From the IMG/VR virus record IMGVR_UViG_3300045988_168611, positions 32,001 through 96,000 of that record: a stretch of DNA of 64,000 bases. The stretch is one strand, 5' to 3'. Shown piece after piece: positions 3,425 to 55,247 of the stretch (its first letter is position 1; every line of letters starts with the position of its first letter). The stretch is from a virus. The position numbers were made by a program, and so were the translations under genes. The notes under the pieces were generated by a model. That model ran no database searches. It was given only the letters and a program-made list of their open reading frames with translations, and was not told where the DNA came from.

Positions 3425-3513
3425 TGTCTTTATCATCGTTTTCTCTGGTATGATTAGGTTGGTGAATCAACCGAATCGAAACGACGTAAGAGAAAGGTAG
3501 AAAGGTGGTGCAT

Positions 3514-6500
3514 ATGGCTTTCGGACGAAAGAAATCCGGTGGAGCAGCGCCCCGTGAACACGGTAGCCAAGCGTGGAATCAACTCGGTAAGCAGGATGAG
3601 CTTGACTCACTGGCTTACCAGGATGTTCATGGTGACCAGCAGCTAGAACGTAGTGACATCGAGGCAAAGATCTCTCCGGTGTCGCGCGAAGTCGCATCGG
3701 CTGTTGCCGGTGTGCTCGTCTTCATCCTCGTGTGGGCATTGTTCTCGTTTGGCACGATGGGTGTGACCATGGGCCGTGACGCCCTGTGGCGTTCGTCTGT
3801 TCCGAGCTACGCAGTACAGAACAAGGCTCTGACGAAGGAGCTGGGCAAGCCTGTGTGGAGCGAAGGGTGTTTCTCCCCAGCTCTGGAAACAGGTGAGATC
3901 GATACGTCCGATGAGACGTGCTATGAGGATGCTGAGGATGTTCCTGAGCCACAGTGGCACGTGGATGCCGTCGCAGCAGAAAAGGCTGATCGAGATGCTG
4001 AGTTGGCTCAGCGTCCGAACAGTGCGATCGGTTGGATGCTGTCGTTCGATTGGCTGAAGTTCGTCATGTCGTCGATTGCTGGTCTTGTTGTGTGGGGCTT
4101 GCTGCGTATGCGTTTGCTGCGCAACCTCAAGGCGCAGAATCTCATGCGCGATACCACTGACATCAACCAATACAAAAATGACCAGCACGTAGCACTCCCC
4201 GAAGAAGTGCGTGAGCGTTTCGATGTGGTGCCTGATGTGGGTGCGCACACGGGCGTGAGTGCAACGACGCTGATCTCTCACTCGATGGTTTCGAACAAGG
4301 GCATCGAGAAGGTTGCGTTTGCACAGCGAGCTGAGAAGGACATTCTCGATGAGGATGGCGATGTGGCTCTGTTCGAGGGAGAAGCTCTCACGGACGACAA
4401 TGGCGATGTTGTGACCAAGATGGTTCCGATGTTTGACGAAGAGTTCGGCACAGCCCTGTGGAACGCATCAGGACTGCCGGATAACAAGCAACTGCGTCGC
4501 CGTCTCGATCCTCGTAACGTGCCGTACAACCCAGGCAATGCCAACCGAGATAAGCTCAAGGGTTTCAATACCCTGGCTGATCTGGTGAACGGTGAGTGGG
4601 AACTTCCAACGTATGAGCCACAGCGTCCGGCTGGCGTCTACTACGTGGATACAGCTCCTGCGAACACCATGATTCTGGCTATGACTCGTGCCGGTAAGGG
4701 TCAGACGTACATTGAGCCAATGCTCGATATTTGGATGCGTCAGAAGCGTCCAGACAACATGATCATCAATGATCCTAAGGGTGAGCTCTTGGTGAAGAAC
4801 TATGTCCGCGCTACCATGCGCGGATTCCAGGTTGTGCAGTTCAACCTCATCAATGCCATGAAGACTGACATCTACAACCCTCTCGGAATGGCGGCTGAGG
4901 CTGCTCGTGAGGGTGACCAAACCAAGTGTGCTCTGTATGTCGAGAACATCGCAGATGTCTTCTTCCCTGTGGACGGCGCAGAAGATCCCGTGTGGCCGAA
5001 CGCTGCGAACAACGCGTTCAAGCGTGCAGCATATGGTCTCATTGATTACTACCTGGAAGAAGAGCACCAGCTGCGTCAGTACGCGATGCGCCACGGTATG
5101 GATCAGAAGGTTCTGGAACAGAAGCTCGATGCCATGTGGGGCAAGGTGACGCTCTACAACTGCTACCAGCTGTTCGTGCAGCTCACGAGTAAGAAGCGTA
5201 AGTCTCCGATGACTCAGGTGAACGAGCGCATCAAGAGCGGCTACTACGATCAGCAGTCGTCCGATCCTGATGAAGTCGACGCTCTGATTGAGCACGACAA
5301 GATGCAGGCTGAGCGCATTGAGTTCCTGTGGGAAGGTAAGCCGGAGTCTGACCTGCTCACCCTGTTCTTCAACGCCACTGAGGCTTTGCCTCAGTCGACG
5401 ATGCGTACGTTGATCGCTAACGCGAACAACGCGCTGCGTGCAATGGCTGGAGCCGAGAAGATGCTCGCATCTGTGTACGGTATTGCTATTACGGCAATGT
5501 CATTCTTCACGGATCCGACGATCTCTACTTTGACCTCTGGTACGCCGTCGCAGAACACCGACCTTGGGGGTCTGTCGTTCCCTCGTCGTTTCGGTGTGCG
5601 TTTTGCTCAGAACTTCACCAAGCGTGATGGTCTTATTGGCGCTCAGGCGAAGTGGGATGCATTTGATGATCCTGAGTTGAAGCACAACCTCGGTAAGGAT
5701 TTCGAGCACGAGGATACTGTGGTTCGAGAAGGATGGGCCCGGTACTATTTCGACGGTAAGTTCCCACATGACGTTGCCTACCTGCGACTGCGTTTGTTCA
5801 ACACCCATACGGGTGTTCTCCTGAAGACGTTCTACTTCCAGTTCACGAAGGGCTACCAGCTCTCGCTGAATGGTCGTAAGTTCGTCAAGGATCCGATCAC
5901 GGGTCAGAAGATCGTCCGTAATGGTGTTCTTGTGGAGATGGTGAAGGGTGAGAACGGTGTTCTCGTTCCTGGTCATCTGCGTTATCCGGCAACCCGTCTG
6001 TTGGATAAGGCTGGCAGTCTCAAGACTGTGCGAGAGAATGTTCCTGCGATCATCTTGTCGTCGGTTCGTTACTCGGAGCAACCAAAGGCTGTGTTCCTCG
6101 TGACGCCGCCTCACTTAATGAAGTACGCGAAGCTCGTGCTGATTCTTGTGAAGCAGTTGGTGGATCTGAATTTCGACAAGTCGTATATGACGAAGGCAAA
6201 CCAGAAGCCGCTCTACAAGACTCGTTTCATGTTGGACGAGCTCGGCAACTTGCAGTCTGAGGGCCACGGTATCTCTGGTTTTGAGACCATGCTCTCCATT
6301 GGTCTGGGTCAGGAGCAGCAATTTACGCTGATTCTTCAGACGTTGCAGCAGGCCAGAGACGTGTATGGCGACAGTGTGGATAAGATCATCCAGGGTAACG
6401 TGGCGAACATTGTGTTCCTGAAGTCGACGGATGACACGATGATCGAAACTTTGGCCAAGATGTCTGGTACACGCCACCGCGCTGTGCGAGATTCGAAGAC

Positions 6501-7560
6501 GGTGACTCAGGATACTGAGCGTCTCATCGAAGGTTTGAACGTTGAGGGCAAGGTGTCGTACACGATCAGTGCGAAGGAGGAAAGTGTCATCGGGTACAAC
6601 GATTTGGCGTTCTTGCCGGAGCGTAACTCGATTATCTTCTCGGCAGGCATCTCGCCAATCTGGAACCGTAATGCGGAGATTCTTCCGATGTCGTGGCGCT
6701 TGTTCAGCAACACCATCAAACACCCAGGTCACGAGTATTCGCTACAAACTATTCCGACGCTCTCGTCGGCACTAGAGTTTGACGTGCGTCTCAACCAGCC
6801 TGACTTCATGAAGATGCTCGATAAGCGTATCGAGCAGGCTGCAAATGCAGCTGAGGCGATGGAGTTGTACCAGGAGGCATACGATCTGGATGATTATGGC
6901 ATCTCGATTCTGGATCCCGATGTGTACTCGGCTGAGGTTATGGACCTCATCGCCTCGATCGAGGAAGAGCGTAAGGGCCACGACATGGAGAACGAAGAGT
7001 ATGACATGGACAGTGACGAGGCTCTGCGTGCTCAGTTGGGCTCTGGTTACGACATGTTCAACGAGGATGACGAGATTAACGAAGATGTCCGAGAGGATCT
7101 TGCTGCTCGTCAGGAGATGTTGGCCGATCGAGCGAAGATGCGCTACGCGGAAGGTCAGATTAGCCGTGAGCATCTGATGAGTGAGAGTGGACAGGTGTTG
7201 CACCATCTCGATGGTGACATCATTGCTGCGTATCGTGAAGCGAAGCACCCAATGGCGTCTGATGCACGGTTCTTCAGAACCGATGCGAATGGTTCGCTGT
7301 GCTCGTTGGATGGACAGATGTACATCAGTCAGGGTGTGTCGAGTGATGAGCTGCGTACTCTCCAAGCTGCATCGTCCGATGAGACGAGCGGTGTGTATGC
7401 AGACGATGAGTCGATCTCTGAGATCGCGGATCTGGGCTCGTGGCGAGTTCATGATGCGTTCTATAGGTTCTTGCACGGCCTGGAGTCGTGGGAGGATCTC
7501 GGCGGAGGCGCTTTCGATCGCGCTATTGCGCGAGTGTTCGAACGTCGAGAGAACGAGTGA
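3514..7560 (+). CDS. Type IV secretion coupling protein (VirD4/TraG family) with N-terminal TM segments and long acidic C-terminal extension
   Basis: ATG at 3514 follows GAAAGGTGG. Two hydrophobic helices lie near the N-terminus. The VirD4-type P-loop context is MILAMTRAGKGQTYIEPMLDIW...INDPKGELL. The Walker B / TraG motif is RFMLDELGNLQ...FTLILQTLQQARDVYG...NIVFLKSTD. Confidence 0.85.
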   Translation: MAFGRKKSGGAAPREHGSQAWNQLGKQDELDSLAYQDVHGDQQLERSDIEAKISPVSREVASAVAGVLVFILVWALFSFGTMGVTMGRDALWRSSVPSYAVQNKALTKELGKPVWSEGCFSPALETGEIDTSDETCYEDAEDVPEPQWHVDAVAAEKADRDAELAQRPNSAIGWMLSFDWLKFVMSSIAGLVVWGLLRMRLLRNLKAQNLMRDTTDINQYKNDQHVALPEEVRERFDVVPDVGAHTGVSATTLISHSMVSNKGIEKVAFAQRAEKDILDEDGDVALFEGEALTDDNGDVVTKMVPMFDEEFGTALWNASGLPDNKQLRRRLDPRNVPYNPGNANRDKLKGFNTLADLVNGEWELPTYEPQRPAGVYYVDTAPANTMILAMTRAGKGQTYIEPMLDIWMRQKRPDNMIINDPKGELLVKNYVRATMRGFQVVQFNLINAMKTDIYNPLGMAAEAAREGDQTKCALYVENIADVFFPVDGAEDPVWPNAANNAFKRAAYGLIDYYLEEEHQLRQYAMRHGMDQKVLEQKLDAMWGKVTLYNCYQLFVQLTSKKRKSPMTQVNERIKSGYYDQQSSDPDEVDALIEHDKMQAERIEFLWEGKPESDLLTLFFNATEALPQSTMRTLIANANNALRAMAGAEKMLASVYGIAITAMSFFTDPTISTLTSGTPSQNTDLGGLSFPRRFGVRFAQNFTKRDGLIGAQAKWDAFDDPELKHNLGKDFEHEDTVVREGWARYYFDGKFPHDVAYLRLRLFNTHTGVLLKTFYFQFTKGYQLSLNGRKFVKDPITGQKIVRNGVLVEMVKGENGVLVPGHLRYPATRLLDKAGSLKTVRENVPAIILSSVRYSEQPKAVFLVTPPHLMKYAKLVLILVKQLVDLNFDKSYMTKANQKPLYKTRFMLDELGNLQSEGHGISGFETMLSIGLGQEQQFTLILQTLQQARDVYGDSVDKIIQGNVANIVFLKSTDDTMIETLAKMSGTRHRAVRDSKTVTQDTERLIEGLNVEGKVSYTISAKEESVIGYNDLAFLPERNSIIFSAGISPIWNRNAEILPMSWRLFSNTIKHPGHEYSLQTIPTLSSALEFDVRLNQPDFMKMLDKRIEQAANAAEAMELYQEAYDLDDYGISILDPDVYSAEVMDLIASIEEERKGHDMENEEYDMDSDEALRAQLGSGYDMFNEDDEINEDVREDLAARQEMLADRAKMRYAEGQISREHLMSESGQVLHHLDGDIIAAYREAKHPMASDARFFRTDANGSLCSLDGQMYISQGVSSDELRTLQAASSDETSGVYADDESISEIADLGSWRVHDAFYRFLHGLESWEDLGGGAFDRAIARVFERRENE

Positions 7561-7643: not shown

Positions 7644-9428
7644 TCAGCGTTCGACGTTCTTGATCCACCGGGTCTTACCCGCGTCATAGATCCTGTAGAG
7701 CTTGTTGGCTAGTGCCGCTTGGTGCTCAGTTTGACCAGGTTTATAGACGAGATCAGGATTGTCGATGAAGCTCTGCTTGGTGTACGTGGAGCGGTGAACA
7801 CGTCGCCATCTCGTGTGGCGTCCGACGTAGCTGTAGCTCGGAGCTTGCTGTTTATCCACAACGAAGCCTGCTGCTTGGTACATCCCGCCGTCAGAGATGT
7901 CGTTATCGCTCCACGATGTCCACGTGTCGACAGGCACAAGCGTCTCAGCGTGAGCAAGGAGCTTGGTGAAACCACCGACGATGACACCCAGTGTTGCGTA
8001 ACGCTGGATGTCCCATGTTCCCGCTGGCAACGAAACGCGCGAACCGTGGTTTTTGCGACCGATGCCAAGCAGAGCACGCAAAACATCGTTCGAGTCATAG
8101 AGGCCAACGTTGACGGTGCAATGAACCGACCCCTGGAGGTGATTGTCCTGCCAGAAACGTCGGGCAATGCCGCCATGGACGAGTTTCACCGTCAGGTTGC
8201 GTGCGTAGAGACGCTCACAGGCCAGCGGGTTGATGTCCGGTAGGACATCGGGCAGACGGTCAACAGCGTGCAGCCTGTGGGCGAGAGCTCGTAGAACGAG
8301 ATCGCGTCGGTGCAGCCAGTCGTCTTCCCATACGTGGACGAGCTGGTACCCTTGCAAGCTCGCCTCGCGTGTTTTGCTCGCGTGGTAGCCGTGAGGCAGA
8401 GTGCGCGAGTGCGCTTCAACGGTTGCGGCCTCGGAGTGCCAGAACACGCCGTTGAACTCGATAGCCAGGTGTTGGTTAGGAATGACAATATCCAGTTCTT
8501 TACCCGAGGGGAGAACTGTATGGTCGTCACCGAGGACCGTGCTGTCGGGGACAAGCGCCTGGATCATCTCGGTCAGGAGTGTTTGCGATGGGTTGGCGTG
8601 GAGCCTGTAACACATTGGGCAACCCGAGGGTTTCACACGGTTACTTGGAGCAGCAAGCCATGTGTGTTCCGGGTTGACCTGGCATTGCCATAGCACAGGT
8701 TCGCCTCCACCCTTGCTCACTACAGTCGTCAAAGACTGATCAACGAGCTGCGAGGCCAAAGCAGGATGTGTGGTCGCTAGGTCATTAACACCAGGAACGA
8801 TCTTTCTCCCGGAGCAGTACGGGCAACCGGTCTTTTTAGTCGTACGGCTGTATGGCGTTGCTTCCCATGTATGATCAGGGTTTTTGGGGCACTGCCAGAG
8901 CACGGATGTGTTTGATCCTGGCTTGAGAGTGGTAGCAAGAGACCGGTCGACGAGCTCAGCAGCCAACTTGGGATGTGTAGTTGCCAAGTCGCTTTGACCA
9001 GAGACGGCACGGCGACCTGAACACTGAGGGCAGCGCGTTCCTTGGCGTGCGACGTTGCTGAGCGGAGCAGTCCAGTGATCGTGCATAGGGTTACCGCACC
9101 AGAACTCAACTTTCTTGTTGGAAGAGCCGGTGAGCTTTGTTTGTAGGCTCGTATCGACCATGAGAGCAGCCGCTTCGGGGTGAGTGGTGGCAACGTCGTT
9201 GACACCGGGGATCACAGTCTTGCCGTTACATACGCTGCATCCGGTGGGGTTCTTCGCGTTCGTGCGGTTCATGGGGCTGGCCCACCACACGTGACGAGAG
9301 TCAACGGGGCAGCGCCATTGAACCTTCTTGTTTGAACCGCGAGCGATGGATCGTAGGGATTGATCCACAAGCTGGTCAGCAAGGGCGGGATTGAACTGCT
9401 CAAGGGTCTGGGAGGGTTTTCTCGGCAT
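7644..9428 (-). CDS. Zinc-ribbon repeat protein (4 DUF4379-like treble-clef repeats) fused to an endonuclease-like (DUF559/Vsr-like) core and a C-terminal domain
   Basis: Four repeats of about 62 aa fit W-x-C-x(5-8)-H-x-W...GCPxCsG+x(3)PGVNDLATTHPxLAxxLVD. These are followed by ELDIVIPNQHLAIEFNGVFWHSE...LVHVWEDDW. Confidence 0.6.
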   Translation of the reverse strand: MPRKPSQTLEQFNPALADQLVDQSLRSIARGSNKKVQWRCPVDSRHVWWASPMNRTNAKNPTGCSVCNGKTVIPGVNDVATTHPEAAALMVDTSLQTKLTGSSNKKVEFWCGNPMHDHWTAPLSNVARQGTRCPQCSGRRAVSGQSDLATTHPKLAAELVDRSLATTLKPGSNTSVLWQCPKNPDHTWEATPYSRTTKKTGCPYCSGRKIVPGVNDLATTHPALASQLVDQSLTTVVSKGGGEPVLWQCQVNPEHTWLAAPSNRVKPSGCPMCYRLHANPSQTLLTEMIQALVPDSTVLGDDHTVLPSGKELDIVIPNQHLAIEFNGVFWHSEAATVEAHSRTLPHGYHASKTREASLQGYQLVHVWEDDWLHRRDLVLRALAHRLHAVDRLPDVLPDINPLACERLYARNLTVKLVHGGIARRFWQDNHLQGSVHCTVNVGLYDSNDVLRALLGIGRKNHGSRVSLPAGTWDIQRYATLGVIVGGFTKLLAHAETLVPVDTWTSWSDNDISDGGMYQAAGFVVDKQQAPSYSYVGRHTRWRRVHRSTYTKQSFIDNPDLVYKPGQTEHQAALANKLYRIYDAGKTRWIKNVER

Positions 9429-9520: not shown

Positions 9521-9549
9521 TCGAAATAGGGGTTTTTCTCGGGTAGAAT
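9521..9549 (+). promoter_or_regulatory. Candidate sigma70-type promoter of the RNAP operon
   Basis: TCGAAA (9521-9526), a 17-nt spacer, then TAGAAT (9544-9549), about 60 nt upstream of the ATG at 9608. Confidence 0.35.
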
Positions 9550-9607
9550 GGAGGGCGTAATACCCGATCGATCCAGTGGATCGAAACTCCAGGAAGGAGA
9601 ATGCGTT

Positions 9608-12600
9608 ATGCAAACGCGCAATGCCGGACTCCGGCGTTACATGTACGAGCACATGATCGCTCGTACGATCAATCGAACCTCAGAATTGACCAAGACTCCC
9701 ATTCTTGTGTCGCAAGGTCGACGCCTGAGGGATCTCATGGAAGAGCGTCTCAACGAACAAGGCCGTTCTTTCAACGATGGTGATCTCCCTGTTGCTGATG
9801 CGTTGAACGCTATTCAAAGCGTCATGCAGGAGAACGTTCCCGGTTACAAAGACTTGTTCCAACCTGCCGATACGTCGAGCAAGGGTTACAAGGCCCTGTA
9901 TGAAGAGTTCAGGAACATGGTCGGTCTGAATGGCTCTGCTGGAGCTGCTGGTCCTCGTCTGCCGATCTCTCCGTATGATCCTCGGTGGGGGAGCCGTCGC
10001 ACTGTGAAGCAGGCGGGAACGTCTATCCTGTACGTTCTTGATGGTGACATCGCTGCGTATGCAGACGGTAAGCCGAGCAATGTTGAGAAGGTGACGACCT
10101 CGGAGCTCACTCTGTACCGCCTGACTGACGAAGGGAAGGCCAAAGAAGCAGGCCGCGCGTTGAGCCTTGATGATGTCTCGGGTCTCACCGAGCTCATGGG
10201 TCGTATGTCGACGGCTGAGTACAACGAGGTTCGTCAGTGGGTGCTGGACGGTGCTCGCAACCCTGAAACGGGGCGTTACAACGCCCGTCAGTTCATGAGC
10301 ACTGAGGCATTGGCTCGTTCCCGAGCTGTGCTCGATATGCTGGCGGAAGAGGGAATTCCGTACACGATCGAGAAGGATCTGCGTCCTGGCCAGATTCGTG
10401 CGCGTTTGACGGGCACGAATATGACAGTGCGCCTGACTGATACTCGCGACAAGGAGCAGTGGGTGGGCCGTGTTTACGACAACGGTGCGACTTTGTACTT
10501 CTCCACGACGGCTCGTCGAGACAACAAGCAGGTGGCGTATGTGCCAACTGTTGACGAGGTGTGCGACCTCGTGCGCGTTGCGTTGGGTCGACCGGTGGAG
10601 CGTAAGGACGGCAAGGGCCTCGTGGGCCGAGTGGGCGAGCGTCAGACCAGCAAGGGTAAGACGGTTCAGGAGTCGTATCTCTCCACTGGAACACTGACGA
10701 GTGCGTACAAAGACATGCCCGGTATGAACAGTGAGCAGATCGTGATTCGTCGTCAGATGAAGGAGCGTTCTGCGTCGTCCCGGTTCTTTGCTGATACACC
10801 AGAGGGCCGTGAGCAAGCGTCGGCATTCATCTCTGATGCAGTTCACAGCGCTCGCCACAACGTGGCTGAGCAGCTGGATGTCGATGGTCTGATCCAGCAG
10901 TTCCGCGATCACGAGGATGCTGCCCGTGAGGGCGCGTACATCCCTATGTTGTCTGGTGATCCTGATCTGGCGGCAGTTGGCCGTGCGTACTGGGATGTGC
11001 TTCGTGGTGCTGAGACGACGCTACTGAAGCCCGAGGCTACTCGTGCTGAATACGCTGAAGCGACGGGTCTGCTTGACGACATGGATCAAGAGAGCGATCT
11101 GTCGGGTGTTCACGACATGTTGGTTGGTTCCGTGGCGTACACGGGTACCCCGGAAGAGCGCGTTCGCGCTCATCTTCGGGATCTTCTCGATACCCAGATC
11201 GGTATCGATGAGCCTATCGACTCTGATGACTTCGTGTTCGATCCGGTGCGCGTTGCTCGTTACATGGCGAGTGAGCACGGCCAGTGGCGCAATAATGATG
11301 ATCTCGTGGCAGCTATGCGCAGTGCAGGTGTGCCCCAGGAGAAGATCGTCGGGGAGTCGTTCTACTCCAACACGTTCCGCGATCGACTGATCACTTTCGA
11401 TGAGTCCACGGCGTTGCCGATGGATGTCGTGGAGGATACCTTTACTCAGTCGATGCTCCAGGTCGTGTCGGATACGCTGGAGTCCTGCGCTGTGACGCCC
11501 GGTTCTATCCGCGTCGACGCCAACGGTGTTGTGGAGTGGACTGGCTCGATCATGCGCTCGCAGACAGGTAAGGAAGAGCCCGTGAGCGGTACGATCGGAC
11601 AGATCTTTGCTCGCGGCGAGAACGGTGAGATCATCACCCGGTTCAATTCCGGTAACGATCTGATGATCGTGCCTGGTTTTGATGCCCGTGTGGTGGCACA
11701 GAAGCCTGGGGAGAACAAGTCCCTCGAAGAGCGCACCCGGCTGATCGGTTACGAACAGCAGATGAGTGACGCGATTCGATACCGAGTTCAGGCTGATGTG
11801 CTCTCAGGTCGTTCCCGTGTGGGCGAGCCTGCCTCGCTGAACAGCGTGTACCGTCGTTTGTCGGATACGCGCCATCGCGCGGATCACTACGAGCGCGCTC
11901 TCGAAGAAGGCATGGATCGGAAGATCCTTGATGCCATTCTTGCTACCGAAGCGCGTCGTGTGCGTTACCCGAACGCTTTGCGTGATGGGTCGACGATCGA
12001 CGCTGACTTCCGTGCATCTCGTGCTCGGGAACAGGGTATTGGTGGCGATCCGGCCAACGACACGACCATGGATCCGTGGGTGTTGACCGGCGGTCGCAAT
12101 ATGTCGTTGCTCAGCGAAGAAGCCGATGGCTACTTCGATCCGATCATGACATCGGGCGGTGTGAACCAGGGTGTCACCCGTTACCTCGTGTCCGGTGCGC
12201 AGGTGAACCCTGATGGTTCGATCGTGCGTTCTGATAAGAACGATCGTGCGCCGCTGATGTTGACTGAGCAGGCTCAGCTGATGAGCTACGACCCGTTCGA
12301 TCGTCAGCAGATGACGACCTCCAATCTCATGAACGCATCGTCTGTGACGAAGCCTGTGGGTACGGCGTTCATGACTGCCGGTGGTTGGACGATGGAGGAC
12401 TCCATCGTTGTGTCTGCTGACTTCGCTCGTCAATACCGTGTTCGTGGCACTGATGGTCAGATGCGTGATCTGATCGTTGGCGACAAGATCTCTGACATGC
12501 ACGGCAACAAGGGTGTTATCTCGCTCATTGTTGACCGTGACGCGGATCTGTCTCCTGATGAGATCGAAGAGCTTCATGGGTCGACCGATATGATGACGCT

Positions 12601-15058
12601 CTTCCGGGAGAATCCGGGTCTGGATGTCGTCATGGCACCGTTCAGCGCTGTGTCTCGTTTCAACGGTGGTTCTGCCCGTGAGGCAATGCAGGAGACTGCG
12701 CCGCTTCGTTTGCCCAACGGTACGACCGTTGAGGCCGGTATGGGTAAGGTGTCGTTCATCGGTACCCATATGACGGTGGATGCAAAGACAGCCGCATACG
12801 ATGAAGCTGCGATCCGGGCTGGCCAGGGCCGTAAGGCGTCGTCTCAGCTTGCGTGGGCGTTGCAGTCCCAGGGCTGCGATAAGGTGCTGGAGCAGATGTA
12901 CGGTGGCAACCTACAAGCTCTTGCACAGCTGCGTGAGATGGCTCTGGTGTGCGGTTTGGACATCGAGCCTGATGGCACCTTGCGTGATGGTCATGATGAT
13001 CTTGCTGTCGGTGGGCAGCGCCGTCTCATTGAGATGGGCGATGTTCCGCTCACTGAACGTGGATCGTTCGACGTGCGTCGCGTTCGTAACGATTTCGCTT
13101 CGTTGATTGGTGACGCTGGCGGTGATATGGAGATTCCGTTCCCGCTGACGATGCCAACGGGTGCTCGTACGCCTCATGCGACTGATACGACGTGGCGTGT
13201 GCCGGTGCTGAGCTCGCATCTGCGATCGGGCCAGGATCTTGACGACGGTACGTCGACGGTCCATGACTACACGTATCGCTACCTTGCGATCCGTGAATGG
13301 TCGCTGCGCTACAAGCATGCTGCTGATCGAGCTGCGTCTGGTGAGCTGACTGGCAAGGAGCTTTCTGATGCTCGTCGAACGATGGCTGAGGCGATGCATC
13401 GCGCTCAGACTGCGTACGATGGCATTGCACAGGACATCATGCGTCGCCGGTTCACCGGCAAGCGCAATGTCTTCAAGGAAGGTCTCATGGCTTCGCGTCT
13501 GCCGCACTCGGCCACTGCTGTGTGGACGGGTGATCCTCGTCTGGACATCGACCAGGTCGGTGTTGGCCCGGAGCTGGCGAAGAAACTGCATCTGCGTGAC
13601 GGTGATTACGCGCTTGTGTGGCGTGACCCCGTTCTTCGTGATGCGGGTGTGCGTTACATGCGCGTGAGCCTTGACGATCGTCTCACTGGTGTGAGTGTCA
13701 ATCCCAATATGGTCAAGTGCTTCGACGGCGATTTCGATGGTGACTCTGTTGCCGTCGTGAAGCTGGGTGATGGTCCGGCACATGAGCAAGCGCTGGAGCG
13801 CCTGACTGTCGAGGCTAACCTCATTGATCTGGGTCAGAGCATGGATGACGAGGGTCGTTACCCTCTTGCGATGCACAACGCGCTCGATGTGAAGGTGTCG
13901 CAGCACTACGATTCTCGTCATGCGGATGCGATGGATGAGGTCCACCAGCGTGCGAACGACGCCTACTATGATCTCGTGGAAGGGGAGGCTAATCGCGAGC
14001 AGTTCCTGGACGAGGGTCGTGATGTCGTGGATGCAGCGTCCTACATGTACCGTGAGGCGCTCAAGCATCAGTACGGTGAGGCTGTGTTGTCGTTTGGTTC
14101 CGTTCAGGAGCACATGAAGTCTGTGGAGGCTGCGTGTATTGAGACGGGAGCTAAAGGCTCGCCTAAGAAGATGCTGGATTATGCTCGATACATCGGGTAT
14201 GACCCGGAGAACCAGGTGGATCTGGTGACCACGCGCGTGACGCGCGAGGAACAGCTGGGTACCATGTATGCAACGGCTGTGAAGTCGTTTGGTACCGGTG
14301 TTGCCGGTACGTTCTCTCAGCGCGGCGTGCGAGCTCTTCGTAACGACGAGCTCAAGGCTGTGTTGGAGCTGACGTACCCGGTGACGCAGAGTATTCTGCA
14401 AGCCAAGCACGATCCGGTGGATGCTCGTCACCGGTATGAGCTGCTGATGGGTCCGGCTCGAAGCTTGTGGCGTGGTCAGGCGATTGCACAGGATGGCAAC
14501 GGTGTGTGGAACACTGTGACGGACGACGATCGTAAGCCGGTTCAGGCCACCAAGGATCAGTGGGTTGCCATGTTCTCGCAGTTCTACGGCGATGCAGGTC
14601 TGGGTGTGGCTGTGAACAGCGACAACATCACGAAGGTTGCAAATGCGCTCAGCGATAGCAACGGAGTGATGGTGAACCTGGAAGATGAGAAGGTCATTGA
14701 GCAGCTTGCTTCTCCGATGGATCGTCTGGCTTACGGCGGTGACTTCACCACGATGCAAGCGTTGGCTGAGGCTCACGCTAACCTGTTCGAGGGTCAGTGG
14801 AACGCCAAGTTTGCGCCAGCTCGTGTGCGTGAGGTGATGGAGGCCGATGTGGAGACGCAGGCCGAGGCACCGGTGATCGCCATGGAAGACACAGTGGCTC
14901 GTGTGGATCGTGATGAGAAGATCGGTCGACGTAAGTCGACATCGTGGGCTGTTCCGGTGCGTTCGCATACGGGTACCAGTGCAGCTGAGCGTTACGGTCT
15001 GACGGCACAGGTGGACAATGAGGCAGATGTGTCTGTCGACGACGGTTTCGAGTTGTGA
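9608..15058 (+). CDS. Single-polypeptide RNA polymerase with fused beta-like and beta-prime-like double-psi beta-barrel modules
   Basis: ATG at 9608 lies 9 nt after GGAAGGAG. Beta motifs: MEDSIVVSADFARQYRV, GDKISDMHGNKGVISLIV (nt 12478-12530), LDVVMAPFSAVSRFNGG. Beta-prime motifs: RRRFTGKRNVF, GDPRLDIDQVGVGPELAKKL, VWRDPVLRDAGVRYMRV, catalytic CFDGDFDGDSVAVV (DFDGD at nt 13730-13744), GAKGSPKKM and the bridge-helix-like ATAVKSFGTGVAGTFSQRG. Confidence 0.85.
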   Translation: MQTRNAGLRRYMYEHMIARTINRTSELTKTPILVSQGRRLRDLMEERLNEQGRSFNDGDLPVADALNAIQSVMQENVPGYKDLFQPADTSSKGYKALYEEFRNMVGLNGSAGAAGPRLPISPYDPRWGSRRTVKQAGTSILYVLDGDIAAYADGKPSNVEKVTTSELTLYRLTDEGKAKEAGRALSLDDVSGLTELMGRMSTAEYNEVRQWVLDGARNPETGRYNARQFMSTEALARSRAVLDMLAEEGIPYTIEKDLRPGQIRARLTGTNMTVRLTDTRDKEQWVGRVYDNGATLYFSTTARRDNKQVAYVPTVDEVCDLVRVALGRPVERKDGKGLVGRVGERQTSKGKTVQESYLSTGTLTSAYKDMPGMNSEQIVIRRQMKERSASSRFFADTPEGREQASAFISDAVHSARHNVAEQLDVDGLIQQFRDHEDAAREGAYIPMLSGDPDLAAVGRAYWDVLRGAETTLLKPEATRAEYAEATGLLDDMDQESDLSGVHDMLVGSVAYTGTPEERVRAHLRDLLDTQIGIDEPIDSDDFVFDPVRVARYMASEHGQWRNNDDLVAAMRSAGVPQEKIVGESFYSNTFRDRLITFDESTALPMDVVEDTFTQSMLQVVSDTLESCAVTPGSIRVDANGVVEWTGSIMRSQTGKEEPVSGTIGQIFARGENGEIITRFNSGNDLMIVPGFDARVVAQKPGENKSLEERTRLIGYEQQMSDAIRYRVQADVLSGRSRVGEPASLNSVYRRLSDTRHRADHYERALEEGMDRKILDAILATEARRVRYPNALRDGSTIDADFRASRAREQGIGGDPANDTTMDPWVLTGGRNMSLLSEEADGYFDPIMTSGGVNQGVTRYLVSGAQVNPDGSIVRSDKNDRAPLMLTEQAQLMSYDPFDRQQMTTSNLMNASSVTKPVGTAFMTAGGWTMEDSIVVSADFARQYRVRGTDGQMRDLIVGDKISDMHGNKGVISLIVDRDADLSPDEIEELHGSTDMMTLFRENPGLDVVMAPFSAVSRFNGGSAREAMQETAPLRLPNGTTVEAGMGKVSFIGTHMTVDAKTAAYDEAAIRAGQGRKASSQLAWALQSQGCDKVLEQMYGGNLQALAQLREMALVCGLDIEPDGTLRDGHDDLAVGGQRRLIEMGDVPLTERGSFDVRRVRNDFASLIGDAGGDMEIPFPLTMPTGARTPHATDTTWRVPVLSSHLRSGQDLDDGTSTVHDYTYRYLAIREWSLRYKHAADRAASGELTGKELSDARRTMAEAMHRAQTAYDGIAQDIMRRRFTGKRNVFKEGLMASRLPHSATAVWTGDPRLDIDQVGVGPELAKKLHLRDGDYALVWRDPVLRDAGVRYMRVSLDDRLTGVSVNPNMVKCFDGDFDGDSVAVVKLGDGPAHEQALERLTVEANLIDLGQSMDDEGRYPLAMHNALDVKVSQHYDSRHADAMDEVHQRANDAYYDLVEGEANREQFLDEGRDVVDAASYMYREALKHQYGEAVLSFGSVQEHMKSVEAACIETGAKGSPKKMLDYARYIGYDPENQVDLVTTRVTREEQLGTMYATAVKSFGTGVAGTFSQRGVRALRNDELKAVLELTYPVTQSILQAKHDPVDARHRYELLMGPARSLWRGQAIAQDGNGVWNTVTDDDRKPVQATKDQWVAMFSQFYGDAGLGVAVNSDNITKVANALSDSNGVMVNLEDEKVIEQLASPMDRLAYGGDFTTMQALAEAHANLFEGQWNAKFAPARVREVMEADVETQAEAPVIAMEDTVARVDRDEKIGRRKSTSWAVPVRSHTGTSAAERYGLTAQVDNEADVSVDDGFEL

Positions 15059-31754: not shown

Positions 31755-32342
31755 TTAGACGATCGGGCGCAACATATCCCTGATGCCGCAGATGAGTGCA
31801 GCGAGACCGTCAAGACCCTTAGCGTTTCGGTCGTAGGTCAAGTGTCGCGTATCTGTCCCGTGGGACAGATAGAGATCCCCAAGGGACCGAGAGCAATGCT
31901 CGATCATCACGTAGTCGCAGTCGTCGGATAGTGAACAGTCGATGTCATCGATCCCAGGAATGGTGTTCAGGAGGGTGACGGTATCTCGGATGCAATCCTT
32001 GAAGTTGAGAGTGTCAACGTAAGACTGGAATGTCTCAGCGAATTCATCGATGCTCTCCATAATGTCAGGGTGGTTGTGTGCGAGTTCCTTGAGCACGCTG
32101 ATCATGTTGTGTTGATCGGCATCCATGAAGCTCTGGGGGTACACCCGAGCTTCGCGCACAGAGAGCAGTTGTGACGGGTGGGTCGCTGTGCTCATCTGTC
32201 GGAAATAGTCACAGTTGATGATGGCTTCGACCAACGTCGGCGCTTCGATGATTTGACTCTTTGGGGTGTACCTTCCCAGATTCTCATCGTACTGGTCGAG
32301 GACGATGATGTACTGTTTGTTCTTTCGTTCGGAGAGCAGCAT
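31755..32342 (-). CDS. Hypothetical protein (195 aa)
   Basis: A co-oriented ORF with AAAGAGG before the ATG. No motif recognised. Confidence 0.55.
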   Translation of the reverse strand: MLLSERKNKQYIIVLDQYDENLGRYTPKSQIIEAPTLVEAIINCDYFRQMSTATHPSQLLSVREARVYPQSFMDADQHNMISVLKELAHNHPDIMESIDEFAETFQSYVDTLNFKDCIRDTVTLLNTIPGIDDIDCSLSDDCDYVMIEHCSRSLGDLYLSHGTDTRHLTYDRNAKGLDGLAALICGIRDMLRPIV

Positions 32343-51686: not shown

Positions 51687-52289
51687 TTAGGCGTCCTTGT
51701 TGGCCTCGGGATCTTGGTCTGCGAGGTGGACGTAGGTGGGCATCGCCACGACACGGATGTATGTGTCGGGGTCGATGTTGGACGGCGTCATTCGATATTC
51801 CGGTGGAAGCATCAACGCGATAAACGTGTCGTGAATGCGCTTACCGTCATTATCGCGGCGCAGGATCTCGTCTTGCACGCGAACGAGGATGTTGTTCTCG
51901 TCGGGCGGTAGCGAGATGTTGCCTTCTTCTGCGTTGATTGCTAGGTTCTCGGCAGCTGGGACGACGATCGTCGTCATGATGTCCTCGTTTTCGAGGACGT
52001 TCAGGATGCCCTCATCGTCAACGAGGCGGGTGTTGCGCCCGTTCTTCTTGAGCCACCCATTCAGGTAGGCATTGTTCGTGACGACATTGACCTCGACATG
52101 GGGGATGTCGATGAGAGTACTGATGTCGTTATCATTGCCGATTGGCTGCTTGGTGTCGCTTGCGACGTGTGGGAGAAGTGCAAGATTCATCTGCGCGATA
52201 GTCTCCGCTACGGTTTCCCCGAGCTGGAACACTTTGGTGGTGGGCTCGGTCGCAACAGCGATGGTAATCGTGTTGTTGGTGTCGGTCAT
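51687..52289 (-). CDS. Hypothetical protein (200 aa)
   Basis: ATG at 52289 follows AGGAG. The upstream part of the track ORF lacks an RBS and overlaps hairpins. Confidence 0.55.
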   Translation of the reverse strand: MTDTNNTITIAVATEPTTKVFQLGETVAETIAQMNLALLPHVASDTKQPIGNDNDISTLIDIPHVEVNVVTNNAYLNGWLKKNGRNTRLVDDEGILNVLENEDIMTTIVVPAAENLAINAEEGNISLPPDENNILVRVQDEILRRDNDGKRIHDTFIALMLPPEYRMTPSNIDPDTYIRVVAMPTYVHLADQDPEANKDA

Positions 52290-52880
52290 ATAGATGGCTC
52301 CTGTCTGTCGTTTTCTATGGTTCTTATCTGGCCATGTATTGGCCACGATAAGACTCTTCTCAACTGCTCGGCTCGCCAGCGGCGAGCTGATCTGTTGGGA
52401 CGAAATCATTGCAGGAATCATTTTTTGAAATGATTTCCATCTTTCGATGAAAAGCCCGGTGCCACCTGCGGTGGCACTCGATGTATCGGAGCATGTGGAA
52501 CAGACAGCCCGAGGCAGGGGTGGGTTGTTCCACATGCGATCCAGCGATTCTTATTGATCCGACTGATTATGCACTCGTGTTGAGACTTGTGAGAGTCTCA
52601 GTGGGATACGTTTGCGCCATGTCGGATGGGATCTGGCGTTTATTACTGCTTGCTGTTGCTCGTATGAGGTTGTTGAGACCTACCGTGTATTCTGTTTGTT
52701 ATGTACGGGTCGCATATTGCGTGCATATTTGGTTGCACACTAGATGTTAATAACCTTATGAGCAGTGTTGGTACGGGGTGCATCCACCCCTGTATTTCCA
52801 GTCACTGTATTTCCTGTGATGGAACCTGTGGTGACCGTAGTGACACTCGGTACAGCCTGTGGATGTACGGTTACCGAATC

Positions 52881-52959
52881 CTGTTGCTCTCTATTGTGTG
52901 TAACTCTTACGTTTTTGCGCGAAGCATCAAAAACGTAAGAGTTAGGTGACGAGCAACAG
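52881..52959. repeat. Long composite palindrome
   Basis: The outer arms are CTGTTGCTC (52881-52889) and GAGCAACAG (52951-52959). The inner perfect 17-bp arms are TAACTCTTACGTTTTTG (52901-52917) and CAAAAACGTAAGAGTTA (52928-52944). Confidence 0.8.
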
Positions 52960-53099
52960 GTGTTTCTTAGGGTCTGAGTGATGAGACCGTGAATCGTATA
53001 TGTTGATGAGGCAGGTGTGATTTTATCTTGTGCCTCCCTCAGCGACATATACGACCAAGGTGGTTTGTAGTCATCGACTTGTGAATCGTAGATTAGGGT

Positions 53100-53960
53100 C
53101 GATGATTTGTTTCCCATCGCCTTGGGACACGGGACTCATCGCGAAGACCCGATGGCACAGATGCATCAACAATGCGTCTGTGCCGTGTTTCAAGCGTCTG
53201 GAACAGACGCGCAGAGGGCACCCGAGACAGCCCCAGTGGGGCTGTGGAGGGCAAGCCTGTGAAGCGATAGCGAAACAGGCGCAGTAAGAGCCCCAAGGAG
53301 CAACGCGACGCAGGGGTGAGGGAGGGGTCGAAGCGGAGCGAGACCACGACCGAAGGGCTGTCGGCTATGCCGACCGAAGGAGTACGCGTAGCGTACGACT
53401 GAGCCAGCCCCTCTTATGCCCTTTTTTACCTGATCCACCGCCAGCGACCATTAGGGAGCGTAAGGTGGGCAAAGTGGCGTAACGAAGGGGAAAACAGGCG
53501 ATACCACCCCCGGTGGGACCACGGGTCGTTGAGGCGGTACCGCCTCCGAGACGTGGTACCACGGGTGCCTGTTTTCCCTGTTAAGACGGGGTTTAGGTGA
53601 GACCATGGTCCGAGCTTGCTTGGCACCGTGGTCTCACCATGCGGCACAGCCGCTGTAACAGGGTGACGAACCGAGCGAGCGCAGGTTTGGCACACTGCCC
53701 TGACCCCCGTCTTGCCGGGTCGTGAAACGGCCCGTCAGCGCCGTGAAGGAGCGCAGTGCAACTGGGCTCCGTTGACACTCTGTAAGGCCCTGAGACAGGC
53801 TGTTGTGGCACCGTATGGTGATATGGCAGCCTGGTTCAGGGCCGATTGTTTCTGTGCTCTTCAGACATTGAGACAGCAGCTGTTACGGCAGCTGCTGGTG
53901 AGTACACCAGATGGAGTTCCATCTGGTGTCTGAGTACCCTGTTTCAGTACCTGTTAGAAG
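53100..53960 (+). ncRNA. Candidate large structured non-coding RNA (family not recognised)
   Basis: There is no credible ORF. At least 12 local hairpins and nested long-range helices are present: 53154-53184, 53194-53210, 53486-53499 with 53567-53579 (enclosing 53531-53546), 53583-53591 with 53705-53713 (enclosing 53596-53638), 53874-53897 and 53904-53929. T-G/G-T pairs in stems are wobble-compatible only on the + strand. A possible promoter is TTGTAG (53065)-18 nt-TAGATT (53089). The boundaries are approximate. Confidence 0.5.
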
Positions 53961-54095
53961 AGCGCAGAAACATGTTGGCGAAGCCTCCATTAACAGTCCA
54001 CCGGATAACACGCCATTGGCTGATACACATGCATCTGAGCAGGTGAATCAGCCAATGTTTCAGAGCGTTTATATAGAGTTATTCGGTGGCATATT

Positions 54096-54530
54096 TCAGC
54101 CACATGTCACAGGGCTATAACAACGCTGTTTTCGAAGCAGTGGAGAGCCCTGTTACATGTGTGAATACCGTGTTGTTGCGTGGTTGTTGTATGGCTGCCT
54201 ATTCCCCATCTGAGACTATCTCTCTTTTCGAGCGTGTCTCAGATGGGGGTACAACAGATAAAACAGAACGTGAATCACCACATGTGACAGCCTTCGTATA
54301 AACGCTTGCGTAGCAACGTTGTAGATGTGGTGTGCAGCAGCTTTGTATTCGTTGTTTTGCCTAGAGGCTGAGAACCCATTTATCTGTGCCTCGTATCAAC
54401 GTCTTGAAACAGCCCAGTAACAGCGCTGTAGCGCTGTTGTAGCATGCGTCCGTATCACGGTTGTGACCATCGATCGATACAGCCTAAATAAACGTTGTGA
54501 TGCATGGTTATGCGTGTCTGTGACAGCCTT
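54096..54530. repeat. Dispersed repeat array ACAGCC-N(3-7)-TAA(A)C(A/G)
   Basis: Copies: CACAGGGCTATAACAACGCTG (54102), GACAGCCTTCGTATAAACGCTTG (54286), AACAGCCCAGTAACAGCGCTG (54408), TACAGCCTAAATAAACGTTGTG (54478) and GACAGCCTTTAGCC (54521). An inverted AGCGTTTATA lies at 54064. TGTAGC-type words occur at 54311-54330, 54426-54443 and 54618. Confidence 0.55.
54204..54249. repeat. CCCC(A)TCTGAGAC hairpin family member
   Basis: CCCCATCTGAGAC pairs with GTCTCAGATGGGG around a 19-nt loop. Confidence 0.6.
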
Positions 54531-54627
54531 TAGCCCCGGTTGATGACTGCCTGAATGCGCAGCTGCAACCGGGGCTGTGATGCAGCGTGGCTGCGTATCT
54601 GGCTGTGCTTAGACGTTTGTAGCTGGC

Positions 54628-54991
54628 GCAATGGTGACCAGATAATGGCCAATGAAAGACCAATAAGTGGTCAATGGTGACCAGTTTGGAGCCGGATAAG
54701 CGCCAGAGGATAGTAAGAGGCAGCAGCAGGTCTTTATCTGGTCCAATGATGGCCAGATAAAGGCGCTTTGTTGGCCGCTCTATGACCGGTGGTACCCTAT
54801 GGTCGTTATCGGGTTCTTTGTTGGCCTCATAACGGCCCATTATTAGACCATGTAAGAGCCAGGAGACAGCCCGGATCAATGATGGGTCAACAATGGGCGG
54901 AAGATGCGCCAGTGTATGGCGCAATGGTGACCATAGTGTGGCGCTTTCCGGGTCAGGAAAAGCCTAGTAGATGCTGGTGCAATGGTGGTCA
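54628..54991. repeat. Direct-repeat array (GC)AATGGTGACCA, often flanked by GGCGC/GCGCC
   Basis: Copies: GCAATGGTGACCAG (54628), TCAATGGTGACCAG (54671), CCAATGATGGCCAG (54743), TCAATGATGGGTCA (54876), GCAATGGTGACCAT (54920) and GCAATGGTGGTCAT (54978). Partial copies are ATAATGGCCAATG (54642) and ACAATGGGCGG (54889). Confidence 0.65.
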
Positions 54992-55043
54992 TGAAAGCGC
55001 CAGGTGGCTGCCAGCATCAACGCAGCATTGCCAGCGTCGAATG

Positions 55044-55083
55044 AAAAACCCCCGGACACAGGAGCCTGTGTCCGGGGGTTTGC
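55044..55083. terminator. Strong bidirectional terminator closing the non-coding island
   Basis: AACCCCCGGACACAGG pairs with CCTGTGTCCGGGGGTT around a 2-nt apex. There are A5 upstream and TTTG downstream; the T-run is better on the - strand. Confidence 0.7.
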
Positions 55084-55120
55084 GTGTTGCTGCTGTGGTC
55101 AACATGTATGTGGTTTCTGC

Positions 55121-55149
55121 TTCGGTTGAGGGACTGAATACGGTATAAT
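55121..55149 (+). promoter_or_regulatory. Candidate promoter of the GH16 gene
   Basis: A perfect -10 TATAAT lies at 55144-55149. The -35 is weak (TTCGGT, 17-nt spacing). It sits about 100 nt upstream of the ATG at 55248. Confidence 0.4.
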
Positions 55150-55247
55150 GCTGTGGGCCTACGCACACTGACTACCTGCTCAGTTTTAGTACGTAGAAGC
55201 CAATCGATCAAGATCAATGACAAGACCGAAAGAGAGGTGTGATCTCT

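Follow-up and report, generated by a model that had tools for sequence, protein, structure and literature searches.

A candidate large structured noncoding RNA beside the replication module of a family of phage-like elements

Here, we report a candidate large structured noncoding RNA in a phage-like element of ~120 kb classified by IMG/VR (record IMGVR_UViG_3300045988_168611). The window analyzed is a 64-kb stretch of this element (positions 32,001 to 96,000 of the record), and all coordinates count from its first nucleotide. The conserved unit is predicted to span ~1.04 kb (~52970-54010; ~1.13 kb if a peripheral 5′ stem at 52880-52960 is included) and to form four helix-closed domains with ~25 to 30 helices. 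We are highly confident that this is a functional single-stranded nucleic acid structure and almost as confident that the structure is RNA rather than single-stranded DNA; that it is a new, discrete, + strand structured noncoding RNA gene matching no Rfam family is the reading toward which we lean. Our analysis supports an original prediction, made without database searches for 53100-53960, of a large, nested, + strand structured RNA. That interval proved too short at both ends, as the first long-range helix begins at 52970 and the 3′ strand that closes domain 4 lies at 53962-53971. For purely computational work, the finding is real and unusually well supported.

Relatives were gathered via pattern scans plus searches with a neighboring protein of 200 amino acids (aa). 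The related sequences comprise ~35 contigs of 105 to 127 kb, mostly from human metagenome assemblies, in at least three clades. Clade 1 holds ~20 distinct sequences, on contigs of 105 to 126 kb, from pattern scans of IMG/VR, ENA, and JGI assemblies; the metagenome and genome scans used the 20-mer GACCATTAGGGAGCGTAAGG, a pattern that differs in clades 2 and 3, so only clade 1 was recovered by them. Clade 2 was discovered through alignment of the 200-aa neighbor protein, its copy being 47 to 49% identical, and a protein search followed by contig look-ups added further relatives with identities in that protein down to 43%; the 77 protein clusters from this search suggest that the locus is carried by hundreds of contigs. 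One relative contig (L047) lies in a genome bin named “uncultured Actinomyces sp.,” and samples ERR589xxx and ERZ77xxxx are presumably from the human mouth. Gene order in the relatives is constant (GH16-like gene, a gap of 2.7 to 3.2 kb, the 200-aa gene and, further on, RecJ), and a profile search detected the structured unit at each syntenic locus (scores of 731 to 872) and as a single copy in the window. The sole return of a 19-mer scan of viral contigs (L063) was checked and discarded as a chance match. BLASTN of the 2.8-kb region against INPHARED (phage) and PLSDB (plasmid) gave zero matches, an exact look-up of two flanking open reading frames (ORFs), for which the ORF starts used were wrong, returned no record, and literature searches found this RNA and these elements nowhere described. 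The RNA family is so far narrow, occurring in one group of elements.

The homologue search called for by the original prediction yielded relatives, and no other DNA at the locus is as well conserved as the structured unit. Within clade 1, 52800-53750 is 93 to 99% identical to the window, compared with 75 to 88% for the flanking genes. Clades 2 and 3, in which the adjacent protein is 43 to 49% identical, keep 53114-53796 at ~82% identity, with 90 to 96% at 53350-53500, and keep 53969-54006 at 86 to 89%; beyond these two stretches and part of a separate block at 52290-52560 (block A), the region is not BLAST-alignable to clades 2 and 3. A center of ~160 nucleotides (nt) at 53350-53510 is near-invariant. 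Judged by these identities, the unit is under much stronger nucleotide constraint than the surrounding proteins and is ancestral to the family, not a recent insertion. Around the conserved sequence, two or three alternative, internally complementary hairpin versions occur at 53322-53352, at the tip of 53788-53841 (53800-53830), and at 54014-54057. The GATTC...GAATC version of 53322-53352 is found in both L033 (clade 1) and L059 (clade 2), and this spread of versions irrespective of clade points to cassette-like exchange. A separate contig of 4,969 nt (L043) contains just the noncoding region at 64× coverage, several-fold above that of full-length contigs of other samples, a difference that a collapse of several strains onto the conserved RNA region could explain.

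The dense secondary-structure potential claimed for 53100-53960 was borne out. On the + strand, the minimum free energy is −440 kcal/mol, compared with −339.6 ± 8.1 kcal/mol for dinucleotide shuffles (z = −12.4), and sliding 200-nt z scores range from −4 to −9 from ~52200 to ~55000 and are ~0 inside the flanking genes. A helix originally given as 13 bp with an inner hairpin is present as 14 bp (53487-53500/53566-53579) and encloses GAGGCGG-TA-CCGCCTC (53531-53546), and the 9-bp helix pairs AAGACGGGG (53583-53591) with CCCCGTCTT (53705-53713). Also recovered were the 43-nt hairpin at 53596-53638, GCGGC-ACA-GCCGC at 53641-53653, the perfect hairpins at 53874-53897 and 53904-53929, and the hairpins at 53152-53186, 53194-53210, 53227-53245, and 53360-53374. 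The hairpin at 53384-53398 is present in the window but loses three pairs in several relatives and lies outside the consensus fold.

Covariation was counted in three tests, in which nested and long-range helices were kept by compensatory changes well above slid and shuffled controls. For test (a), the fold was predicted solely from the window sequence, with no comparative input, and counted on 21 clade 1 sequences; 41 pairs had changed on both sides, compared with 24.4 ± 2.5 in shuffles (0 of 500 reached 41) and 9 to 14 in slid controls. Test (b) used 25 sequences, including clade 2, and an RNAalifold core consensus of 185 pairs, in which 99.5% of cells were paired and 22 pairs were compensated (110 cells), compared with 0 to 5 in slid controls. 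Thirteen representatives of all clades entered test (c), with 201 pairs in 29 helices and 98.3% of cells paired; here, 22 pairs were compensated, compared with 13.9 ± 2.1 in shuffles (0 of 500 as high) and 0 to 5 in slid controls, and the covariation score was 0.106, compared with 0.056 for shuffles and at most 0.026 for slid controls. The long-range helices supported are 53476-53480/53738-53742, 53582-53591/53705-53714, 52970-52991/53128-53150, and 53848-53857/53962-53971; the last two are the most telling, since the clade 2 sequence there has diverged past BLAST and the architecture is kept. Outside the consensus, a search for extra covarying helices (pseudoknots and switches) gave only 4- to 5-bp matches at chance level, with one 8-bp exception. 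This is an alternative hairpin at 53568-53575/53583-53590 (CCUGUUUU/AAGACGGG) that could not form together with two of the domain 3 consensus helices; it may be a conformational switch or a chance match.

The long-range helices bear on a reading without any global fold, in which the whole 2.95-kb noncoding region is a string of independent hairpins on one or several transcripts, acting as processing, stability, attenuation, or termination sites or as small RNAs, and the nesting is partly an artifact of prediction. Hairpin richness is indeed region-wide in both clades, even where sequence is not conserved, covariation falls mostly in local hairpins, and stems are more conserved than loops. Terminator-like hairpins with T-rich tails, most of them on the + strand, exceed the expected number (7 versus 2.5 in the window and 13 versus 3.3 in L067), and the very long-range helices of the single-sequence fold (e.g., 53305-53326 with ~54170-54190) are only 72 to 89% paired, for which reason we do not believe them. 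Four helices closing domains of 120 to 270 nt are nevertheless compensated or fully paired in all clades, and the 160 nt that stay invariant despite neighbor proteins of ~45% identity exceed the needs of isolated stability hairpins. The T-run at 53420-53425 was considered as a terminator and rejected, because it forms the 3′ side of the domain 2 closing helix and so lies inside a helix, not after one. We therefore regard a mere string of hairpins as improbable and retain the multidomain RNA.

Several observations weigh against a discrete, globally folded + strand RNA. All homologues come from one element family, and their sequences are related and recombining, so the shuffle controls (0 of 500) do not amount to a probability. 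The alignments used to predict the consensus folds of tests (b) and (c) were also those used for counting, and many helices show no variation from which pairing could be judged. Hairpin richness over the whole 2.95-kb noncoding region would be explained equally by local hairpins in an array and by a global fold. The − strand also folds well (−392.8 kcal/mol; z = −9.5), and invariant columns make up 82% of paired and 50% of unpaired positions, whereas catalytic RNAs usually show the opposite. The ends of the RNA were placed only from where conservation stops. No + strand promoter was found, the only sigma-70-like match being on the − strand at 52593-52566, in a spacer outside the RNA unit. Unlike GOLLD and ROOL, which often lie near tRNA islands (PMC12286853), the RNA has no tRNA genes nearby; ARAGORN reported no tRNA and no transfer-messenger RNA (tmRNA) over the 64-kb window. 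Two + strand promoter candidates picked by eye, TAGATT (53089-53094) and TACGGT (52866-52871), were rejected, neither being conserved in relatives.

A degraded or unrecognized protein-coding gene, for example, on the − strand across 53100-53900, is hardly credible. All three − strand frames are stop-free over ~800 nt there, with open runs of at least 60 codons in each, and in L075 a gene caller set a 267-aa ORF antisense to the structured unit (4917-5720 of that contig). The + strand lacks TTA, CTA, and TCA, so the three frames are open simultaneously, which reflects base composition and not coding; the antisense ORF occurs in L075 only and has no counterpart in other clades. Variable sites have strong 3-base periodicity in both flanking genes (p ~0) and none in the noncoding stretch (256/252/275; p = 0.56), in agreement with the original view that it contains no credible ORF. 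The core also carries indels that are not multiples of 3, including some of 1 to 2 nt, and one would not expect a gene in decay to be conserved above all other DNA of its locus. The coding reading is essentially excluded. The stop-free − strand frames lead gene callers to annotate false ORFs antisense to the RNA, and the annotation of these elements needs correcting. We looked for a lack of covariation, a degraded gene, and hairpins left unpaired in relatives and found none of the three.

The + strand had been proposed from T-G pairs, and a strand-neutral test upheld this. In a consensus from which G·U was forbidden, and which is thus symmetric between strands, single in-helix mismatches were counted when flanked by Watson-Crick pairs; read on the + strand, these were G·U at 9 positions (159 cells) and A·C at no more than 1 site (11 cells). 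When G·U pairs are permitted, the consensus becomes more stable by 69 kcal/mol on the + strand versus 22 kcal/mol on the − strand, and 20 polymorphic pairs alternate between Watson-Crick and G·U versus 8 with A·C. The + strand reading is favored as the likely one by these counts and by the mostly + strand location of the terminator-like hairpins with T-rich tails.

G·T is the least harmful mismatch in a DNA hairpin, so the strand asymmetry is compatible also with a DNA-level element, that is, single-stranded DNA hairpins (an origin, packaging site, transfer site, or single-strand promoter) or protein-binding palindromes. Several stems are perfect palindromes with 2-nt centers, their arms are more conserved than their loops, and the element has a type IV coupling-protein-like ATPase domain. 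Nested helices, however, close domains of up to 270 nt in a multijunction arrangement over ~1 kb, the centers of “perfect” palindromes are not palindromic in relatives and so behave as loops, and protein-binding palindromes would not tolerate a compensatory swap of both arms. To our knowledge, single-strand promoters and origins of the Frpo/ssi/sso type are single imperfect hairpins of ~200 to 330 nt, and we know of none with a multijunction architecture of ~1 kb. In this type, the stem of one long hairpin recreates −35 and −10 boxes, whereas the + strand of the region here holds no sigma-70-like −35/−10 pair. A DNA-level structure is, in our judgment, very improbable, and we continue with the RNA reading.

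The predicted RNA is described from 5′ to 3′ on the + strand. The peripheral 5′ stem (52880-52960) consists of helix 52880-52891/52948-52960 around a perfect 17-bp hairpin (52901-52944), with one compensatory pair per helix in clade 1; in clades 2 and 3, its counterpart is a hairpin with another sequence. Domain 1 (52970-53150) is closed by a 19-bp helix (52970-52991/53128-53150) and contains inner hairpins at 52994-53054, 53055-53064/53116-53125, and 53069-53107. In clade 1, 99.5% of its cells are paired, with seven compensatory pairs in the inner hairpins; the long helix in clade 2 reads GCAAUGAGACC/GGUCUCAUUGC, with G-C replaced by A-U and U·G by C-G. Two hairpins follow (53152-53186 and 53194-53210), with compensatory pairs at 53155/53183, 53199/53205, and 53200/53204.

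Domain 2 (53213-53424) is closed by AGAGGGCA (53213-53220) pairing with UGCCCUUU (53417-53424) and holds hairpins at 53221-53251, 53255-53280, and 53360-53374, together with the cassette-like variable hairpin at ~53322-53352, which has three alternative versions. Its covarying pairs are 53227/53245, 53293/53314, and 53324/53347. Between domains 2 and 3 lies a hairpin with an inner stem (53434-53469; CCACCGCC...GGUGGG), whose pairs are invariant in all clades and so are evidence neither for nor against pairing.

Domain 3 (53476-53742) holds most helices of the original prediction. Its long-range closing helix joins GGCGY (53476-53480) to RCGCC (53738-53742), where pair 53480/53738 is U-A in 13 sequences, C-G in 8, U·G in 3, and C·A in 1. 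Enclosed are 53487-53500/53566-53579 around 53513-53562, helix 53582-53591/53705-53714 (pair 53591/53705 is G-C in 21 sequences and A-U in 2), and hairpins at 53596-53638, 53641-53653, 53659-53697, and 53716-53734. Five covarying pairs fall in 53596-53638, two in 53513-53562, and two in 53716-53734. Palindromic GUGGUACCAC and GGUACC at 53513-53563 are engaged in an intramolecular helix of the consensus fold and give only a hint toward a possible homo-oligomeric RNA assembly, such as the nanocages or dimers that GOLLD, ROOL, and OLE build through kissing loops and A-minor contacts.

The hairpin at 53748-53770 has four covarying pairs, and the long hairpin at 53788-53841 has a hypervariable, indel-rich tip that differs in sequence and length on a stem that is kept; clade 2 has an equivalent hairpin. 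Domain 4 (53848-53971) is closed by GUUUCUGUGC (53848-53857) with GCGCAGAAAC (53962-53971) around inner perfect hairpins at 53874-53897 and 53901-53931. In clade 2, its closing helix is UCGUCUGUGC/GCACAGACGA, with three consecutive compensatory pairs and one U·G-to-U-A change, again around two hairpins and followed by a conserved GGCGAAGCCUCC block. The conserved 3′ block (53969-54010; AACAUGUUGGCGAAGCCUCCAUUAACAGUCCACC) is the last stretch conserved across clades (86 to 89% identical to clade 2) and keeps the same spacing from the core. Further + strand hairpins at 54010-54260 (53998-54009/54078-54089 around 54014-54057, 54101-54161, and 54206-54246) are conserved as pairs in clade 1, the one at 54014-54057 in three compensated versions; their sequence is not conserved in clade 2.

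On the 5′ side, a 282-aa ORF (51687-52535, − strand) is conserved as protein only from an internal methionine at MTDTNNTITIAV, and its first ~82 codons correspond to stops and unrelated residues in relatives. Because this N terminus is not conserved, the true start is placed at CAT 52287-52289, and the noncoding stretch becomes 52290-55238 (~2.95 kb). The 200-aa neighbor protein matched no Pfam or PHROG family, and its AlphaFold model (pLDDT, 62.7) gave nothing at E ≤ 0.001 in Foldseek against PDB. Block A (52290-52560), between the start of the leftward gene and a variable spacer, contains five conserved hairpins and is 96% identical within clade 1, with part of it (52310-52425) ~76% identical to clades 2 and 3. 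It lies outside the core RNA and probably either serves the leftward replication operon as a structured 5′ leader or is a small RNA in its own right. One of its hairpins (52491-52537) straddles the false start codon of the 282-aa ORF. The spacer (52600-52790) is the least conserved part (63 to 75% identity), is more A+T-rich, and is probably a divergent promoter region. At 52775-52800, a small hairpin, GGGGTGCATCCACCCC, is followed by TGTATTTCC, and clade 2 (L067, 3929-3950) keeps GGGTGATGCACCC and TCTGTATTTT; this hairpin could be a 5′-terminal stem of the RNA, an attenuator, or an operator. The motif CTGTATTTCC is directly repeated in the window, at 52790 and 52805.

On the 3′ side, an iteron-like array at 54624-55000 has at least four copies of TGGCGCAATGGTGACCAG; clade 2 has denser ATGGTC/TGACCA repeats at the same position (L067, 5760-6060), and the array is partly conserved by BLAST. 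It may bind proteins at the DNA level, as an origin, a partition site, or an operator, and is treated here as a neighbor of the RNA, not a part of it. Beyond it lies a perfect, G+C-rich, 17-bp terminator-like hairpin (55046-55081), preceded on the + strand by an A-run and followed by a short T-run. The hairpin is present in the window and L078 and absent from L075 and L077; it may act as a terminator-like site in both directions and mark the farthest point at which a + strand transcript could end, and it was rejected as a strong + strand terminator because the better T-run falls on the − strand side. About 60 nt past this hairpin and ~90 nt before the GH16-like gene (+ strand; start, 55239) is a conserved TATAAT-type −10 box (55144-55149; GGTATAATGC, 55142-55151), from which the GH16-like gene seems to use a host sigma-A-type promoter. 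Since the gene has its own conserved promoter beyond the terminator-like hairpin, the structured RNA is not simply its leader.

This setting underlies the main rival to a trans-acting RNA, ranked ahead of the hairpin string and then of a single-stranded DNA structure, namely, a cis-acting replication or partition control transcript directed toward the iteron-like array. Such a transcript could be a pre-primer, an R-loop origin transcript in the manner of ColE1 RNA II or phage T4 origins, or a copy-number target. The RNA holds a fixed place between the replication module and the array in all clades, its + strand orientation points at the iterons 0.6 kb downstream, and G-runs occur at 53310-53330. 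Those G-runs are, however, replaced in half of the relatives, an antisense partner was not found, and the sign of the GC skew is constant across the region, without the mark of a bidirectional origin. The element's own primase-helicase and polymerase also mean that an RNA primer is not obviously needed, and a pre-primer needs no multidomain structure of ~1 kb with a 160-nt invariant center. We judge a cis-acting transcript unlikely, though it deserves more weight than the other rivals.

The structured RNA adjoins a replication module that occupies ~20 kb to 52.3 kb on the − strand and encodes a DNA polymerase, a clamp loader, two helicases, a D5-type primase-helicase, RecJ, and a CAAX protease-like protein; as a fixed neighbor of these genes, it offers a concrete place to seek function. 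An 1,836-aa protein (9548-15058, + strand) carries Rpb2 domain 6 (β catalytic) and Rpb1 domain 2 (β′ catalytic) in one chain, so the element seems to be equipped with a fused two-barrel RNA polymerase (β/β′) of its own, in which case sigma-70 scans would miss the element's promoters. An ACAGCC-type motif was sought across the window, and its matches were too noisy to interpret. Other products include a 1,351-aa protein with a type IV secretion coupling-protein (TraG/VirD4/TrwB) domain (3505-7560, + strand) and a 594-aa protein with four DUF4379 zinc-finger repeats (7644-9428, − strand). No capsid, portal, or terminase gene was recognized within the 64-kb window, so calling the element a phage, as opposed to a plasmid, depends on its IMG/VR classification. 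Nearly all 1-kb bins have a positive GC skew on the + strand regardless of gene strand, and only at 55 to 57 kb is the skew flat; no sign change, the mark of a bidirectional origin or terminus, was found across the whole window. In P0014 and P0016, the neighbor gene lies on contigs of 244,369 and 233,275 nt, about twice the usual length, which may be concatemers or dimers.

Taking together the size of the RNA, its invariant center, its variable surface hairpins, its mobile-element context, and the precedent of GOLLD, ROOL, and OLE, we propose that it would be transcribed from the + strand as a discrete, stable, multidomain species and have an architectural role in trans in the replication cycle of the element, either as a scaffold for element-encoded proteins or as a self-assembling particle. 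If the structure is RNA, a trans-acting scaffold or particle, as opposed to a cis-acting control element, is a close call on which we stay slightly on the doubtful side. More speculative, and unlikely, is a defined three-dimensional particle, self-assembling like ROOL or GOLLD or serving as the core of a new ribonucleoprotein, in which the 160-nt center would be an active or recognition site and the hairpin tips exchanged surface features under selection. If this held, the tips might, for example, escape or engage a host system, and the RNA would be the largest ornate nonribosomal RNA known from a bacterial virus.

Comparison with known families agrees with the earlier failure to match a common RNA by eye. 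Rfam 15 gave no gathering-level matches over the whole 64-kb window, and permissive searches (E ≤ 10) of 3.1 kb and 1.15 kb returned only eukaryotic microRNA, small nucleolar RNA, and viral cis-element noise (E ≥ 0.4; bit scores far below gathering scores). None of the covariance models of GOLLD (RF01998), ROOL (RF03087; ~0.6 kb), OLE (RF01071), raiA, or HEARO matched at gathering score, and there was no Rfam match to group I or II introns, RNase P RNA, tmRNA, 6S, signal recognition particle RNA, riboswitches, small self-cleaving ribozymes, or phi29 pRNA. The structured unit sits between genes and interrupts none, unlike an intron.

Among RNAs tied to replication or packaging, ColE1 RNA II and phage T4 origin transcripts are likewise structured and noncoding, beside replication functions, and directed toward origin-like repeats. 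ColE1 RNA II, however, is ~550 nt, requires RNase H and Pol I of the host, and has RNA I as its antisense partner, whereas neither such a partner nor a conserved G-rich hybrid-forming segment was seen here and the element has its own primase and polymerase. The pRNA of phi29 (RF00044) shares the trait of being a phage-encoded structural RNA of a machine, acting in trans and oligomerizing by loop-loop pairing; it differs in length (~120 to 174 nt), and here there is no match to its model and no packaging gene was identified in the window. OLE, a ribonucleoprotein scaffold of ~600 nt in Bacillota, is, like this RNA, a large, highly conserved, ornate noncoding RNA with long invariant stretches, and a scaffold mode is proposed here too. 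OLE differs in being chromosomal, in an operon with protein partners (oapA and others) of extremophilic or anaerobic Bacillota; here, no model matched, and the neighbor proteins are without a recognizable family or fold.

GOLLD and ROOL, ornate phage and prophage RNAs forming RNA-only nanocages, had been named as the comparison class; likeness of kind stands, and membership of either family is excluded, with no covariance-model similarity even at E ≤ 10. Membership of every Rfam family failed, and what is shared is only the kind, a large, ornate, mobile-element RNA. Like large ornate noncoding RNAs in general, the unit exceeds 500 nt, is noncoding, and has many compensated helices and long conserved stretches. 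It is longer than GOLLD and ROOL, at ~1.0 to 1.1 kb, and is so far confined to one element family. As with both, it is borne by a phage-like mobile element (with homologues on IMG/VR viral contigs), is multidomain with covarying helices over >0.5 kb, and has peripheral hairpins that vary around a fixed core. GOLLD (~0.8 kb) has a strongly conserved part adjoining a less conserved 5′ part (PMC12286853), an arrangement found here as well. Few large structured bacterial or phage RNAs of unknown function have been described (OLE, GOLLD, ROOL, and raiA), and each is structurally remarkable, forming an RNA-only cage or a ribonucleoprotein scaffold (PMC12286853). Being unrelated to these families, longer, and more constrained than the nearby proteins, the RNA described here makes a new target for cryo-electron microscopy and for asking why RNAs of this kind are found on mobile elements.

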